From positions 32,001 to 96,000 of the forward strand of contig JAYYZJ010000005.1 of NCBI GenBank assembly GCA_036340075.1: a stretch of DNA of 64,000 nucleotides, read 5' to 3'. This stretch comes from Thermodesulfobacteriota bacterium. Lineage in GTDB: Bacteria > Desulfobacterota_D > UBA1144. The position numbers are program-made. Positions 45,001 through 51,000 of this stretch are shown in pieces (position 1 is the stretch's first letter; each line of letters begins with the position of its first letter).

Positions 45001-48000
45001 TTTTTATTATTTCATCTGTGATATGAGGAATAACCTGAACAGTTTCTCCTAAATAATCTCCCTTTCTTTCACGAGAAATTACTTCATTGTAAACTTTACC
45101 AGTAGTTACATTATTGTGTTTGCTGGCAATTATATTAGTAAATCTTTCATAATGGCCTAAATCTAAATCTGTTTCCGCTCCATCATCAGTAACATAAACC
45201 TCTCCGTGTTGATATGGATTCATTGTTCCTGGGTCAACATTTATGTAAGGGTCAAGTTTCTGAAGAGAAATTTTTATTCCTCGAGCCTCAAGCAAAGCTC
45301 CGATTGCTGCACTAGCGAGTCCCTTGCCAAGGGAGGACATAACGCCTCCAGTTACAAAGATATACTTAGTCAATCTCTTACGCATGGACCTAGTCTTATA
45401 ATATTTAAATATTTTACTATTTACAAATTAAATATTTAATTTTGTTAGCAAATCTTTAACAGCTTCAGATCTGTGGCTTAAGAGAATCTTCTTATTTGGT
45501 TCTAATTCTCCAAAAGTCTTGGAAAGCTCTTCATTGTAAAATACGGGATCATATCCAAAACCATTTTTTCCCTTTGGAGACTCGGTTATCAAGCCCTTGC
45601 ATGTTCCATAACCTATAATTGGGCTATCAACATTTGTTGGATTACCATAAGCTATACAACACACAAATCTCGCTGTTCTATCTGTATTTCCTTCCATTTT
45701 CTTTAAAAGCTTGTTTAAATTCTCTTGATCTGAGGAGCCCTTCCCTGCATATCTTGCTGAAAAAACACCTGGTTCATTATTTAATGAAATTACTTCAAGT
45801 CCTGAATCGTCTGCAATAACAGGAATGGAAGATTTTTGAATTAAATATTTAAGTTTAATTATTGCATTTTCTTCGTAAGTAACCCCAGTTTCTTCAACAT
45901 TGAGACTAATCCCGTAAGAATTCAATGATACCGGGTCGAACAAGCCTTTAAGAAGAATTTTATATTCATCAATTTTGCCTTGATTGTTAGTTCCGATAAG
46001 TATTTGTTGCAAAGACTTTTCCTTTTCTTGTGGAGGCGCTGGGAATCGAACCCAGGTCCGAGAATGTGCCAAATAGAGCTTCTACATGCTTATTTTAGCA
46101 TTAAATTTAAAAGTACTTCTTGAGCCAAAAAACAAAAAATACTTCGATTCCCTTTAATACTGAAAAAAAATAAAGGGAAAATATTTTTTTTCAGGCTCAT
46201 ATGAATGACATTGTAAAAAACTCTATGAGCAAAGTTGATTACAATGTTGCTGCTCTATTTAGGCAGCAAGTTGATTGATTGGTTCGGCACTTATAGTGCT
46301 TTTGCAATTTTCACGAGTTAGCTCTCGACATGCTACTTCTAAACGCAAAATCCTCGTCGAAACCAAATCGCCCCCAAATAATAAGTAACTTAGAATATTA
46401 CAAAAAGAAGCTAAATACTAGTTTTATTTTTAAAAGATCTCTCCAACTCTCTTTTTAAGTCTTTTTTCTTCAAATCTGTTCTTTTATCATAAAGTTTTTT
46501 ACCTTTTCCAAGGCCGATTTCAATCTTTATTAAGCTCTTCCGAGAGTATACCTTGATGGGAATTAGAGCATAACCTTTAATTTGAATCTTCCCTATCAGC
46601 TTTCTGATTTCTGCTTTATTTAATAATAATTTTCTATCTCTTTTCTCTTCATGTCCAAAAAAAGATGAATTAGAAAATTTAGATATATAAGAATTAATAA
46701 TAAATATCTCTCCTCTTCTTGAGACAGCATAGCTCTCTTTAATACTAAGTTTTCCCTGTTTAACAGATTTAACTTCAGAGCCAGATAGCACAATACCTGC
46801 TTCAAAGGTTTCTTCTATATGATAATTTCTTTTAGCATTTGGATTAGTAGAATAAATTGGCATGGTTAAAACAGAGTCATGACTCCGAATGCTGCCGTAA
46901 TAGTAGTTAGAGGTGCTAAATCTTCTTGAGTTTCTGTCGCATTTTTTAATTTTCTAACTGAATTTAAAGCATCGTAATACAAACGATCATCATTAATTAG
47001 TTTTCCAAGTGTTCCTTGTCCTGAATTAATTTTTTTAATTAATTCATTAAGATTAGTTGATAATTCATTAACTGCATTATAAAGTTTGTCATCATTGACT
47101 AATTTCCCCAAAGATCCTTCACCAGTAGCTACTTTGTCAGTAAGATAATTTAATTTTACTAATGCTTTTTTTGCTTCAACATAAACAGTGTCGTCATTTA
47201 CCAACATACCTATGGTTCCTTCTCCTTTATCAATTTTTTCAGATATTCTGGAAAAAAACTCTAGAGTTTTATTTAACTCCTCATAAACTTTTGGATCATT
47301 AACTAATTTACCAATAGTTCCTTGAGAAGTAGCTATGCTAGCAGTAATTTCACTTAAATTACCAAGTATTGATTTAATTTTATCGTGATATTCGAATAAC
47401 TGCTTATTGACCATATCAACAGTTGTATCAATCTTGCTAACTAGAGAATTAAAATCTACCGGGGTTTTGGAAGGTATCACTCCTCCATCTCCTAATATTG
47501 GCGAATTAACAGAACCAAAACTTAAGCCAACATAAGTTGAACCTAATAAGCTCGTCATGTTAATTGAAGCTTGAGAGTCTGTTTTTATAATTACATCTTT
47601 GTTAATAGCAATTACAACTTGGACATTCTGGCCTGCTAAGGAAATATTTTTAACGCGTCCAACTTCTACACCAGACAATTTAACTTCACTTCCTACTCTT
47701 AATTCTCCTACTGTTGGAAAAAAGGAAATGTAAGTCTTTTCTTTCTTGTAGAAAGAAACACCTGATACAACTTCGAACAACACCAACAACACAATGATGC
47801 CAACAACAAAAAAAGTTCCTAATTGAGCAGTTTTATTCATACAGCTATTATACACAAAATCAGATTGTTTCTAGAATAGGACTATTTGAGTTTTTTATTG
47901 TATCTATATCACCTGATAACAAGACTTTTCCCTTATCTAAAATTGATATTTTATCAGCTATAGAATATGAGAAAGGTATATCATGAGTTACAACGATTTG

Positions 48001-51000
48001 AGTCATATTTCTTTCACTTTTTAATTTATTAATTATTTGAGAAACAGTTTTGGTATTAATGGGATCTAACGCTGAAGTTGGTTCATCATATAGCAATATA
48101 TCAGGCTCAATAATTAATGATCTGGCTATAGCTACTCTTTGCTGCATTCCACCACTTAGCTCAGAAATCATTTTATTTGCTGAATCTTCAATTCCTAGCT
48201 CCGTTAAAATCTTAAGAGCTTTTGAAACCCTTGTTTCCTTATCATGAATATTATGCTCATCTAAATAAATTGTAACATTATCTAAAACAGAGAATGAATT
48301 CAACAAAGCTCCGCCTTGAAAAACGTAAGACATTTTATAATCTTGTGCGGTTTTTTCTGGATTTAAATTTTCTCCATTAACCATTATTGTTCCAGAATCT
48401 GGTTCAATTAAACCTATAAGCATTTTTAATAGAACTGATTTTCCAGTACCTGATTTTCCCAAGATAACATGCACTTCGTTTTTCATAAAACTGGTCGACA
48501 TTGAATCAATAATTATTTTTCCATCGAAGGATTTACTTAAATTGTTCAAGGTTATTGTTGCTTGGGATGTCATAGCAAACCTACCAATATTAGAAACCTT
48601 GTAATAAAGTAGTCCAACAATAGAACCGAAATGAATGATGCAACAACAGATTTTGTAACAGAATTTCCTATTTCTCTTGGTCCTCCTTTTGCTAACAGAC
48701 CTACAGAACAAGAAATTATAGAAATGGCAATTGCAAAGAATATAGACTTTATAATCCCTGACATTATATCGGAAAGCGTCACAACTTGGCTTAGATCATT
48801 ATAGAATGAAGATAAAGAGACAGAGATAGTCTGGTTCATCGAGGAAACAAAAGATCCGCCCAACCAACCAATTAAATCCATATAAATGACAAGAAAGGGC
48901 AATGCAATCAAGCATGCTAGGAATCTTGGCAAAACTAGAAATCTAACTGGATCGATATTCATTGTTTTTAAAGCAGATATTTCTTCGTAAACAGTCATTG
49001 ATGAAATTTCGGCTGTAATTGAAGAACCAACCCTACCTGCCATTAAGATAGCTGCCATTACGGGAGCTAGTTCGGTACATAAAGATACACCTACTATTCC
49101 TCCTATCCTGTCTTCAATTCCGTATCCTGCTAGTTGAATTCCAGTCTGCAAGGCTAATACAGCACCAATAGATAATGATATTAAAGCTGCAACTGGAAGG
49201 GTTCTGTTTCCCATATCAAACAATTGTGCGAGAAATTTATCTACGGTAGAACCAAAATACTTAATACACTTAATTGTTTTCCAAAGAAGCTTGAGAAATT
49301 CACCTATTCCTGTAATAATTGCCAAAATATTATTCATATATTTATTGGAATATATAATATTCTAATTTTTGATTCATCACCAGTTTCTAGTCCTAAAAAA
49401 CCACCCAGGATATTAAATTTAGTGCCATTATCGTTTGAACTATGAGAAATAATTGGTATTAGAAAGTTAATGCTAAATTCCTTTGATTTATTAGATCTAT
49501 CATTCTTATATTTAATTAAATTAAACATTATTGATGTTCTAAAAACACTTGCATCTTCTTGAATCCTTAGAATTGACCACATTGGGGACCATATCTTCTT
49601 AATTTTCTGATTCTTTGAAAAGAAGCTCTCTATAGGGGAAAATATTCTAAAATCATACCCATCAACATAAGTGTCCTTCGAATAGATAGGCCAAAGCGTT
49701 GAAAATTCTCTAGAAATTTTATTTGTAATCAAATCATAATATGTATCTTGCTTATATAGAAAAAAAAGAAAACTTTGGGTTTTAAAGTATTCAGTTGCTA
49801 AAATTTCATTTTTATATCTATATATAGGCCAGAAGTAGAAACCTTTTTCTACATTAGGTGTTTTAACATAAGAATAAAATGGAAAAAATCTTTGGCTTTT
49901 AATGTTGACTCCTTTTTTATACTGAATTATAGGCCATGGCATATTATATGTTGTTTGTCCTCTTGTCTTATCGGTATAAATATTAAAAAAAGGCCAAAGA
50001 TAAGTCTTAGATTTGTGTAGTGATGAGTTTGAAGAAAGATATATAGGAAAGAATATCTTTTGTTCCAAATTAATCCCTGCTCTTGTATCTTTTTTGTAAG
50101 CATAAAATGGCCACAAAATGAATCTTGATTTTCTTACAACATTCAAATTATTCTCATCCATTTTCGTTTCATAGCCAAATAGTGGCCATACTTTAAAGCC
50201 AGAAACATATTTACCGTCCACTTTCGAGAAGAAAGGCCAAAGAAAATGTCTATTTACAGAATTCTTTTTGACTGTTTTTAGATATAAAGGGAATAGAAAA
50301 TATGAAATTTCTTTTTTGTTATATTTATCTTTTAGATTGCCCCATATGGGAAAAAGTGAAAAGTAATCATTTTCTGGTTTTCCAGACCATGAAACATCGA
50401 GAATTGGGAATATCGAGAATTTTTTTTCTTCCAAATCATCGTAATCGTTAAAATTGCTATAGCGAATTATTGAGAAAAAAGCTTTGAATTGAGTTTGCTG
50501 ATTGTCTTCTTGATACCCAATAAAAGGATAAATGATATCTAAAGATCTAAATTTTAATTCATAATCTGCTTCGTAATAGAAAAGTGGTCTAAAAGCATAT
50601 GTTTTAGATGATTCATCTTTTTTATATTCAATTATCGGTCCCAACATAGTAAATGCATCTTGAGCAAATATATTTATTGGGAGAAGAGCTATTATTAGAA
50701 TAATTGTTAGTAATTTTTTCATAAATAAGACCTTTTAACTCTTTTACTAATTCCGCATACAATTTCATAAGGTATTGTTCCGATAGAAGATGATAAATCA
50801 TTTGCTGTATATGAATCATCAAAGATTATTATTTCGTCTCCAACTTTTGGTTCTTTAATTTCTGATAAATCTATCATAGTTAAATCCATACAGACTCTAC
50901 CAATTATTTTACATTTTATATCTCCATATCTTACAAATCCAATGTTTGAAACTGCTCTAGGGAGTCCATCGGCATATCCTATGGGTATAACTCCAATATT

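Follow-up and report, generated by a model that had tools for sequence, protein, structure and literature searches.

The secreted 462-residue protein X458, which belongs to an unnamed family, appears to add a new accessory component to a transporter of a known kind. Its gene lies directly in front of one kind of Mla operon in at least three phyla, so X458 is probably a missing outer part of that transporter. We consider it likely that X458 is a functional partner of the transporter. With less assurance, we favor the reading that it acts outside the cytoplasm as an accessory subunit of one distinct form of Mla, in which MlaE and a long tailed MlaD are usually joined by MlaF. New here are the co-occurrence with a specific MlaD tail, the pairing with an HpnN-like exporter, the alr gene upstream, the coexistence of X458 with TamB and LolA, and the class-wide absence of LpxC.

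Organization of the X458 locus

The window analyzed is a stretch of 64,000 nucleotides from a Thermodesulfobacteriota genome. The span 46866..50722 reported for the operon in the first-pass annotation is already in window coordinates; positions 32000 lower correspond to infB/nusA. The features of the locus are as follows.

50719..51795, minus strand: alr (alanine racemase), upstream of X458, assigned via orthologues in relatives
49334..50722, minus strand: X458 (g00458), ORF of 462 aa, hairpin-repeat protein predicted to be secreted, family unnamed
50663..50722, minus strand: predicted signal peptide of X458 (residues 1-20), read from the translation, cleavage after IFA, no lipobox Cys
48570..49337, minus strand: mlaE permease (PF02405, E 3.5e-70), its start overlapping the X458 stop by 4 nt
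about 47860..48573, minus strand: mlaF ABC ATPase (PF00005, ABC_tran, E 8e-33), overlapping the mlaE end by 4 nt
46866..47840 (ORF 46866-47855), minus strand: mlaD, long 'type-A' (PF02470, E 4.8e-18), 324 aa from Met 6
46869..46925, minus strand: C-terminal tail of MlaD, EDLAPLTTITAAFGVMTLF-COOH, co-occurring with X458

The mlaE product also scored above the TIGR00056 cut-off (215.6 versus 212.2 bits). For mlaF, the Met of MTSQATITL was chosen as the likely start, a longer ORF from TTG covering 47860-48711. The alr assignment was made through named orthologues of relatives, which carry Ala_racemase_N and Ala_racemase_C.

Each gene in the order X458-mlaE-mlaF-mlaD abuts or overlaps the next. 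X458 had been taken for the first gene of this operon; because alr lies upstream and its TGA overlaps the X458 ATG (ATGA), it is not, and the order alr-X458-mlaEFD-dtd is conserved in the class. Overlapping neighbors are general in this compact genome (alr, mlaE, and mlaF), so that overlap alone says little here. A single MlaD match was found in the whole genome, in agreement with the proposal that this is its only MCE operon.

The X458 translation begins with MKKLLTIILIIALLPINIFA followed by QD, the putative cleavage point lying between the two; it was placed by an A-x-A-like rule, and residues 2-20 form a helix in the AlphaFold2 (AF2) model. X458 is thus predicted to be Sec-exported.

X458 family and predicted fold

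Profile searches of X458 against Pfam and NCBIfam returned no family at E<=1, consistent with the earlier description of a secreted protein without family match. No Pfam family was common to the members searched (0/34), eight single rows being attributable to chance. The family is large, with 348 homologues at E<=1e-3 and 990 clusters at 50% identity. Every given name among the 120 matches listed was "hypothetical protein", and the source names seen across the family comprised nothing beyond "hypothetical", "uncharacterized" and "signal peptide protein". With neither a Pfam nor an NCBIfam model, and not found in the literature searched, the family can still be called undescribed.

The sequence is rich in aromatic residues (F+Y+W = 20%) and contains 11 copies of the motif [WF]P[LFIV][FYIL], against 0.32 in shuffled sequences (maximum 3 in 2000). 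The motif centers a repeat of 17-25 residues ([WF]-P-[LFIV]-[FY]), of which there are about 20, each a beta-hairpin. The AF2 model based on 34 sequences was all-beta with a pLDDT of 90.6, a pTM of 0.73, 307 residues at >=90, and about 44 short strands averaging 6 residues. The predicted arrangement of the hairpins is an unbroken single-layer sheet resembling those of MORN and G-box proteins, close to the sheet of about 45 strands described in the first-pass annotation. Foldseek gave TM values of only 0.10-0.16 for this model, and VIA-align gave Z values of 11.0-11.8 for the CPAP G-box, 9.9 for OspA, and 9.9-10.1 for MORN1 (TbMORN1, 9.9-10.0). The best superposition of the predicted model was on TgMORN1 (Z 10.1, rmsd 3.7 A over 162 residues) and involved the C-terminal 190 residues of X458. 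Conserved hydrophobic residues occupy positions i and i+2 beside the W-P turns and the opposite hairpin end is polar, which suggests a ribbon that is amphipathic, with a single greasy stripe; how the ribbon is shaped overall, and that its stripe is exposed, we infer from the secondary structure, the alignment, and the superpositions.

Conservation of the X458-mlaE order

The mlaE gene started at or just after the end of X458 in 21 of 23 class loci, the two misses being cut by contig ends. It was directly downstream in 71/80 Desulfuromonadia-type metagenome loci (eight of the nine misses end within 300 nt) and adjoined X458 in 58/80 loci near a verrucomicrobial query. When 151 genomes were sampled evenly across the phylum Verrucomicrobiota, 66 strong X458 matches emerged, 60 of them with mlaE directly downstream and 59 with mlaD as well. 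The conservation of this order beyond the class, claimed earlier, therefore holds more broadly than stated, in three phyla and in independent samples.

The protein is not confined to Mla systems: in one verrucomicrobial clade its gene sits behind that of an HpnN-like RND exporter. An MMPL gene was directly upstream of X458 in 69/80 loci of the verrucomicrobial query; its product is HpnN/BstA-like (TIGR03480, E 1e-174, under the curated cut-off). In 21/80 loci this neighbor was kept without mlaE beside X458, the pairing having outlasted the departure of mlaEFD, and the MMPL-only loci formed one nested clade with a support of 100. HpnN has been proposed to borrow MlaC-like and MlaA-like partners (PMC12324291).

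Association with a tailed MlaD

The window MlaD comprises a TM helix (residues 3-26 in the model), an MCE domain (PF02470, residues 40-114, E 4.8e-18), a helical region with four GEGTxGKLVNDxxLY-like repeats, and a conserved C-terminal tail, as seen in an alignment of 30 orthologues and a monomer model of low confidence (pLDDT 63). In all X458-linked MlaD proteins examined, the tail was conserved, acidic-Pro-hydrophobic in character, and ended in F or L. A regular expression for the tail matched 12/12 class operons, 49/49 loci of the verrucomicrobial-query set, 46/52 metagenome loci, and 48/58 even-sample loci; the misses displayed were plainly variant tails in which A replaced P or V replaced S/T. 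It matched none of six MlaD proteins of a second type in the same class. Genomes of the related family f2 hold both types, and only one adjoins X458. In the verrucomicrobial genome G031, mlaEFD has moved away from X458 and the tailed MlaD is still encoded. Across three phyla the X458 gene and the tailed MlaD type are inherited together, and X458 is tied to that subtype only: relatives of families f3 and f4 encode MlaD, with X458 in 0/9, and run an Mla system without it.

The first-pass annotation called X458 a conserved partner of an MCE system. Gene order and the co-varying MlaD tail are what speak for this; X458 is not exclusive to Mla, and its binding to an Mla protein is putative.

Proposed role and alternatives

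In the role that we favor, the MlaD tail would hold the X458 ribbon in the gap that separates the tip of the MlaD assembly from the outer membrane. The chances that X458 binds MlaD directly appear about even to us; that it contacts lipid through the hydrophobic stripe is possible but somewhat doubtful. The stripe might bind acyl or isoprenoid chains, or dip into the inner leaflet of the outer membrane. X458 would then do in trans the job of MlaA/MlaC, of PqiC, or of the C-terminal barrel of Veillonella MlaD, and in one verrucomicrobial clade it may also serve the HpnN/BstA-like exporter. The repeat number varies across the family (one all-repeat version has 1018 aa) and the helical region of MlaD ranges from 218 to 375 aa, which fits a fixed-length bridge poorly. 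TbMORN1 is reported to have bound individual phospholipids and neither membranes nor vesicles, MORN-type sheets being mainly protein-protein modules (PMC7725318).

In a bolder version, which we hold to be rather unlikely, X458 would be an inter-membrane lipid conduit of a new kind, a single-layer amphipathic beta "rail" held by the MlaD tail with lipids sliding along its aromatic stripe. Mla-X458 would then be the bulk anterograde route for the phospholipid outer membrane in the marine Dadabacteria-like family (which is without LpxC, Lpt, TamB/TamA, AsmA, LolA, MlaA, and MlaC), and HpnN-like exporters in some Verrucomicrobiota would reuse the rail. The predicted rail length, about 44 strands x 4.8 A, would roughly equal the width of the periplasm.

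X458 could instead be purely a docking or anchoring piece that uses the tail to fasten the MlaD tip to peptidoglycan or the outer membrane, as PqiC fastens PqiB, with no cargo contact and with the stripe serving as a protein-protein or membrane-insertion surface. The co-variation of the tail with X458, the protein-interaction role of MORN-like sheets (PMC7725318), the reported binding of MCE partners by PqiC-like outer-membrane lipoproteins (PMC10897342 and PMC13631591), and a lipobox-like N-terminus in 22/233 full-length homologues (by a crude regular expression) are consistent with this. However, the window X458 lacks a lipobox, the stripe extends over all of the roughly 44 predicted strands, a surface much larger than a tail of about 19 residues calls for, and X458 has a second pairing, with an HpnN-like exporter that lacks an MlaD tail; we regard this reading as unlikely.

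Distinctly improbable is that X458 is an independent envelope protein (a periplasmic lipid sink, or an outer-membrane stabilizer or spacer) co-transcribed as part of the same envelope programme and forming no complex. Its neighbors do differ by lineage, with alr in the class, leuD upstream in 52/63 metagenome loci with room, and the HpnN-like gene in one clade, and 6/66 even-sample loci lack an adjacent mlaE. Against this, the order of X458 and then mlaE, with a gap of 0-450 nt, is kept in three phyla while the other neighbors change, and where a genome holds two MlaD subtypes, only one of them is linked to X458.

An integral outer-membrane beta-barrel of the TGD4/LptD receiver kind, mis-modeled by AF2 as an open sheet, is very improbable. 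In its favor, TGD4 serves the plastid TGD (MCE) system as its outer partner, X458 is a secreted protein of predicted all-beta fold whose gene neighbors an MCE system, and VIA-align gave weak matches to porins, TonB-dependent receptors, and LptD (Z 6-7.3, rmsd mostly 8-11 A). Against it, the predicted strands are short, all five AF2 models had pLDDT values of 89.5-90.6, the C-terminal 190 residues fit the extended TgMORN1 far better than any barrel, and X458 ends in ...PINI with F as the last residue in only 19 full-length homologues counted, so that no barrel-type C-terminal signal is evident.

Comparison with known systems

In the proteobacterial Mla system, MlaA-OmpC/F and MlaC are, like the proposed X458, extracytoplasmic accessories linking the inner-membrane MlaFED to the outer membrane. 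X458 does not match PF04333 or PF05494, and whereas it is predicted to be an all-beta repeat ribbon of about 440 residues, MlaC is a small lipid-pocket protein and MlaA a helical outer-membrane ring.

The Veillonella parvula-type system, as described by Grasekamp et al. (PMC10665443), resembles the X458-linked one in consisting of MlaEFD only, with a long helical MlaD that has to reach the outer membrane without MlaA or MlaC. There, however, the beta element is fused to MlaD, whereas X458 systems have a short MlaD tail and a separate beta-protein gene upstream of mlaE. The same study describes MlaABC as largely proteobacterial and most MlaD as long, reports no barrel for MlaD of the PVC group, and leaves unexplained how barrel-less long MlaD, as in this group, reaches the outer membrane. 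X458 is common in the PVC group. Being widespread, unnamed, and found with the tailed MlaD subtype, it is a concrete candidate for the missing piece of such systems. How lipids cross the periplasm is an open question in most diderm phyla. Homologues of X458 also occur in cultured Citrifermentans/Geobacter relatives, Gbem_2735 of Citrifermentans bemidjiense being one.

PqiC and PA3214, outer-membrane lipoproteins of Pqi-type MCE systems, are likewise separate outer-side proteins, reported to attach to the far end of an MCE protein that spans the periplasm (PMC10897342 and PMC13631591). No sequence match to them was found for X458, its predicted fold differs, and the family is mostly not one of lipoproteins. 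HpnM/HpnS/HpnT and BstB/BstC are proposed periplasmic or outer-membrane partners of HpnN/BstA-type RND lipid exporters (PMC12324291 and PMC11713862). X458 resembles them in that its own gene, in one clade, adjoins that of an HpnN/BstA-like exporter, and in the proposed role, which is to take over a lipid from the exporter in the inner membrane and bring it to the outer one. These proteins are MlaC-like, MlaA-like, lipocalin-like, or substrate-binding-protein-like, and X458 is unrelated to them in sequence and fold. Squalene-hopene cyclase was found in 0/31 genomes of the X458-bearing class.

MORN repeats, the CPAP G-box, and OspA consist of consecutive hairpins in one single-layer antiparallel sheet, as predicted for X458, which differs in its repeat, in being periplasmic and bacterial, and in a sheet about twice as long; the MORN profile (PF02493) matched 0/34 family members at E<=1. 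X458 did not match the AsmA/TamB profiles in Pfam (PF04357 and PF05170), and no AsmA/TamB-type grooved chain was among the top VIA-align rows for its model, although absence from such rows says little by itself against a fold of this type.

Lipid carriers in the genome and its relatives

The reported loss of TamB, LolA, and class A PBPs was reproduced: TamB was found in 0/19 genomes of the family versus 12/12 others, LolA in 1/19 versus 11/12, and the transglycosylase of class A PBPs in 0/19 versus 10/12. AsmA, MlaA (PF04333), and MlaC (PF05494) were not found anywhere in the window genome, Lpt was not found in the genome family, and LpxC is absent from the whole class. In this tiny marine genome and its family, the Mla-X458 system would be the only recognizable lipid route between the two membranes, which would make these genomes of about 1 Mb a naturally minimal example of how an outer membrane is built without LPS, TamB, or Lol. 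X458 had been thought to matter because these carriers are lost; it is no replacement for them, as the f2 relatives encode X458 alongside TamB, LolA, and a class A PBP.

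Operon organization

X458, a 462-aa secreted all-beta repeat protein of an unnamed family, is encoded directly upstream of mlaE, with the following neighbours:

50719-51795, reverse strand: alr, from the ORF listing
49334-50722, reverse strand: X458 (462 aa), from the ORF listing
48570-49337, reverse strand: mlaE, identified as MlaE by Pfam/NCBIfam (E 3.5e-70)
about 47860-48573, reverse strand: mlaF, ABC ATPase by Pfam/NCBIfam
46866-47855, reverse strand: mlaD, MCE/MlaD domain (E 4.8e-18), with a probable start at Met 6 (46866-47840)
46411-46863, reverse strand: smpB, from the ORF listing

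Positions count along the window (contig C5, 32001-96000); values lower by 32000 would point to infB and nusA instead. The start codon of X458 is overlapped by the alr stop codon (ATGA), and 4-nt overlaps occur between X458 and mlaE and between mlaE and mlaF. The whole genome (963 kb, 92.9% complete) gave a single MlaD match. RNA contigs from four runs in three studies matched mlaD, mlaF, and mlaE in part, at ≥99% identity, and none covered X458; their shares were small and have no bearing on the expression of X458 or its absence.

Family size and hosts

X458 had no Pfam or NCBIfam match even at E ≤ 1, and neither Pfam (2025 copy) nor NCBIfam (2026) holds a model of the family. A word-seeded search with X458 returned 348 proteins at E ≤ 1e-3, and every name given among the 120 matches listed was ‘hypothetical protein’. 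Exhaustive phmmer searching expanded the family to 990 clusters (50% identity) at E ≤ 1e-3, or 700 at E ≤ 1e-10. Among the names seen, members came from Candidatus Dadabacteria, Thermodesulfobacteriota (Citrifermentans, Geoanaerobacter, and Desulfuromonas), Verrucomicrobiota, and Planctomycetota; cultured hosts include Citrifermentans bemidjiense (Gbem_2735). No Pfam family was common to 34 aligned members, the profile had no match among PDB sequences at E ≤ 10, and in the ESM Atlas X458 and its Citrifermentans homologue fell only into unnamed clusters with no structure models. Neither the Gbem_2735 identifiers nor a description of the family was found in the literature searched, which for the latter included parts of the main texts of PMC10665443 and PMC12324291.

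Gene order beside X458

X458 was present in 21 of 31 genomes of the class: the studied genome, 17/18 further members of its family f1, 2/2 of f2, and 1/1 of f5, with none in f3 (0/1) or f4 (0/8). The gene abuts mlaE in 21 of 23 class loci, and contig ends cut both misses. Three larger relatives (L218-L220) keep the order alr-X458-mlaE-mlaF-mlaD-dtd, alr being the alanine racemase gene and dtd the D-Tyr-tRNA deacylase gene. An MFS transporter gene is divergent from alr in L218 and L219; the window contains no dtd, and smpB directly follows mlaD there.

On Desulfuromonadia-type metagenome contigs, mlaE lies 39–183 nt downstream of X458 in 71/80 loci, and eight of the nine misses end within 300 nt. 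The order in these loci (L124-L203, e.g. L131:9415-10431) is X458-mlaE-mlaD, with no mlaF in between. Where there is room downstream of mlaD, the next gene encodes a CruF-like membrane protein (PF04240) in 46/47 loci, and leuD lies upstream of X458 in 52/63 metagenome loci with room on that side.

In Verrucomicrobiota, an even sample of 151 genomes gave an X458 match in 84, of which 67 were strong (E ≤ 1e-36). The 66 strong matches examined, leaving out the verrucomicrobial genome G031, had mlaE 6–449 nt downstream in 60 and mlaD as well in 59; none had an MMPL gene upstream. A second sample comprised the 80 genome loci closest to the verrucomicrobial sub-alignment of X458. Here 58 loci had mlaE downstream and 69 had an MMPL gene as the immediate upstream neighbour; the two occurred together in 48, the MMPL gene alone in 21, mlaE alone in 10 (four of these with less than 300 nt of upstream sequence), and neither in one. 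The product of the MMPL gene resembles the RND lipid exporters HpnN/BstA (TIGR03480, E 1e-174), its 582 bits lying below the 751.85 cut-off. In a FastTree phylogeny of X458 (114 of 167 rows, with the G and D groups thinned), 19 MMPL-only loci formed one nested clade with support of 100, and L091 stood apart, which suggests from the tree that mlaEFD departed from X458 in about one event. Five MMPL-only genomes carry X458 once and have mlaE three times at other locations, and G031 retains an intact mlaEFD operon of the tailed type described below, on another contig than X458.

A link to HpnN as a feature of the whole phylum was rejected, given the absence of upstream MMPL genes from the even sample and a strong HpnN-like match in only 7/151 genomes, a figure that may be an undercount as at most five candidates per genome were scored. 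A hopanoid-specific carrier was likewise rejected: squalene-hopene cyclase was found in 5/5 HpnN-linked genomes checked versus 0/31 class genomes.

Within the MMPL-only clade (L027-L043, L049, and L059), a GT4 glycosyltransferase gene follows X458 in 11 of 22 loci without mlaE, and L027 has a Wzt/TagH-like ABC ATPase further upstream. Several MAG records with verrucomicrobial-type loci (L030, L037, L039, L041, L049, L059, and L092) are titled Klebsiella, Akkermansia muciniphila, or Bifidobacteriaceae, at odds with their gene content or tree position.

A conserved MlaD tail accompanies X458

The MlaD proteins examined beside X458 all share a TM helix and an MCE domain, together with a helical region and a C-terminal tail. 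The helical region, which ranges from 218 aa (G022) to 375 aa (metagenome loci), contains between one and four GEGTxGKLVNDxxLY-like repeats, depending on the lineage, and behind each comes a helix of ~22 residues. The tail has the form acidic-x-x-P-[LIV]-[ST]-x-hydrophobic...[FL]-COOH, and a corresponding regular expression matched 12/12 class operons, 49/49 proteins of the 80-locus verrucomicrobial set, 46/52 of the Desulfuromonadia type, and 48/58 of the even sample, the misses printed being evident variants. It matched 0/6 MlaD of the other type (f2, f3, and f4). In an alignment of 30 MlaD orthologues, most of the invariant columns fell in the last repeat and the tail, which, though no more than a correlation, is the best clue to a site where X458 might bind. 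The MlaD monomer model was poor (pLDDT 63) and used for secondary structure alone. Complex prediction of MlaD 30-324 with X458 22-462 (both alignments, no MlaD hexamer) scored 0.00–0.01, which counts neither for nor against binding.

Predicted fold of X458

AlphaFold2 with 34 sequences gave a model of X458 with pLDDT 90.6 and pTM 0.73 (five models all 89.5–90.6), comprising about 44 strands with a mean of 6 residues. Foldseek matches reached TM 0.10–0.16 at most. With VIA-align, the model scored Z 11.0–11.8 against the CPAP G-box, 9.9 against OspA, 9.9–10.0 against TbMORN1, and 8.6 (rmsd 16.6 Å) against the apoB-100 beta-belt; the best geometric fit was the extended form of TgMORN1 (Z 10.1, rmsd 3.7 Å, 162 residues). 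Since these values lie below the caution level for repeats (Z under about 13), they indicate architecture and not kinship. The [WF]P[LFIV][FYIL] motif occurs 11 times, mostly spaced by 17–25 residues, against a mean of 0.32 and a maximum of 3 in 2000 shuffles, and F+Y+W make up 20.4% of the composition. When alignment conservation was mapped on the strands, nearly every strand had hydrophobic i, i+2 positions at its W-P-turn end and a polar distal end, so that the ribbon appears amphipathic, its hydrophobic residues forming a single stripe or edge. Judged from the superpositions, the alignment, and secondary structure, its overall length would be about 44 × 4.8 Å and the stripe would be exposed.

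Proposed role of X458

X458 is likely to be a functional partner of the Mla subtype with tailed MlaD, given that the gene order is conserved, that the link is specific to this subtype, and that the MlaD tail co-varies. It would then be a new accessory component of a known kind of transporter, Mla/MCE, and its predicted architecture is unusual. Three points from the literature lend support. According to PMC10665443 (section 9), the majority of diderms possess MlaEFD alone, with MlaD in a long form, and it is an open question how MlaD forms lacking a barrel reach the outer membrane. Passages of PMC12324291 propose MlaC- and MlaA-like partners for HpnN, and BstA is described in part of PMC11713862 as acting with periplasmic and outer-membrane partners.

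In the proposed mechanism, the X458 ribbon would be held by the MlaD tail, and its stripe would touch lipid or the outer-membrane leaflet. One rival reading is a pure docking piece, with the co-varying tail in its favour and the length of the predicted hydrophobic stripe against it. Another takes X458 as an independent envelope protein; upstream neighbours that differ between lineages, such as the MMPL gene, favour this reading, and the gene order kept with mlaE across the class, Desulfuromonadia-type, and even-sample loci speaks against it. A mis-modelled barrel is the third; in VIA-align, outer-membrane barrels reached only Z 6–7.3 at about 8–11 Å.

Envelope gene content

The first-pass annotation had described TamB, LolA, and class A PBPs as lost. 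This held for TamB and the transglycosylase throughout f1, and for LolA with one exception, in a poor assembly.

Table. Envelope genes in f1 (including the studied genome) and in the other class genomes.
TamB: f1 0/19; others 12/12
LolA: f1 1/19 (match in a 78%-complete, 180-contig assembly); others 11/12
Transglycosylase: f1 0/19; others 10/12

A single Omp85 was found in 17/19 f1 genomes (G013 had a weak second match in addition and G012 none) and two in 12/12 others, matching the loss of TamB in f1. The two genes of the 12 non-f1 genomes encode proteins of about 770–800 aa and about 620–700 aa, the latter TamA-sized. BamA was present in the studied genome and in 30/31 class genomes; AsmA, MlaA, MlaC, LptD, LptD_N, and LpxC were not found in the studied genome. 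LpxC was found in 0/31 class genomes, except that the 78%-complete f1 assembly yielded a 53-aa piece, and the class as a whole has the appearance of diderms lacking lipid A. In f2, X458 is found together with TamB, LolA, and a class A PBP, so it did not arise to replace them when they were lost; in f1 it is the component still present after that loss.

Length variants and unusual members

A search for longer X458 relatives yielded one double-length all-repeat protein and one weak match, neither with Pfam domains. Among P0302, P0123, and P0236 is a 1018-aa Planctomycetota protein with the same hairpin repeats throughout. P0123 and P0236 are extended forms, free of Pfam domains, in which low-complexity linkers or further repeats are added; such forms have either an acidic, proline-rich linker of ~190 aa behind an N-terminal hydrophobic segment or an acidic tail together with additional repeats at the C-terminus. 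P0040 (287 aa, on a 1172-nt contig), which aligns to 31% of X458 with 67% identity, additionally bears a fatty-acid hydroxylase domain (PF04116, E 2e-12). Either the gene call may wrongly span two genes, or the neighbour may be real.
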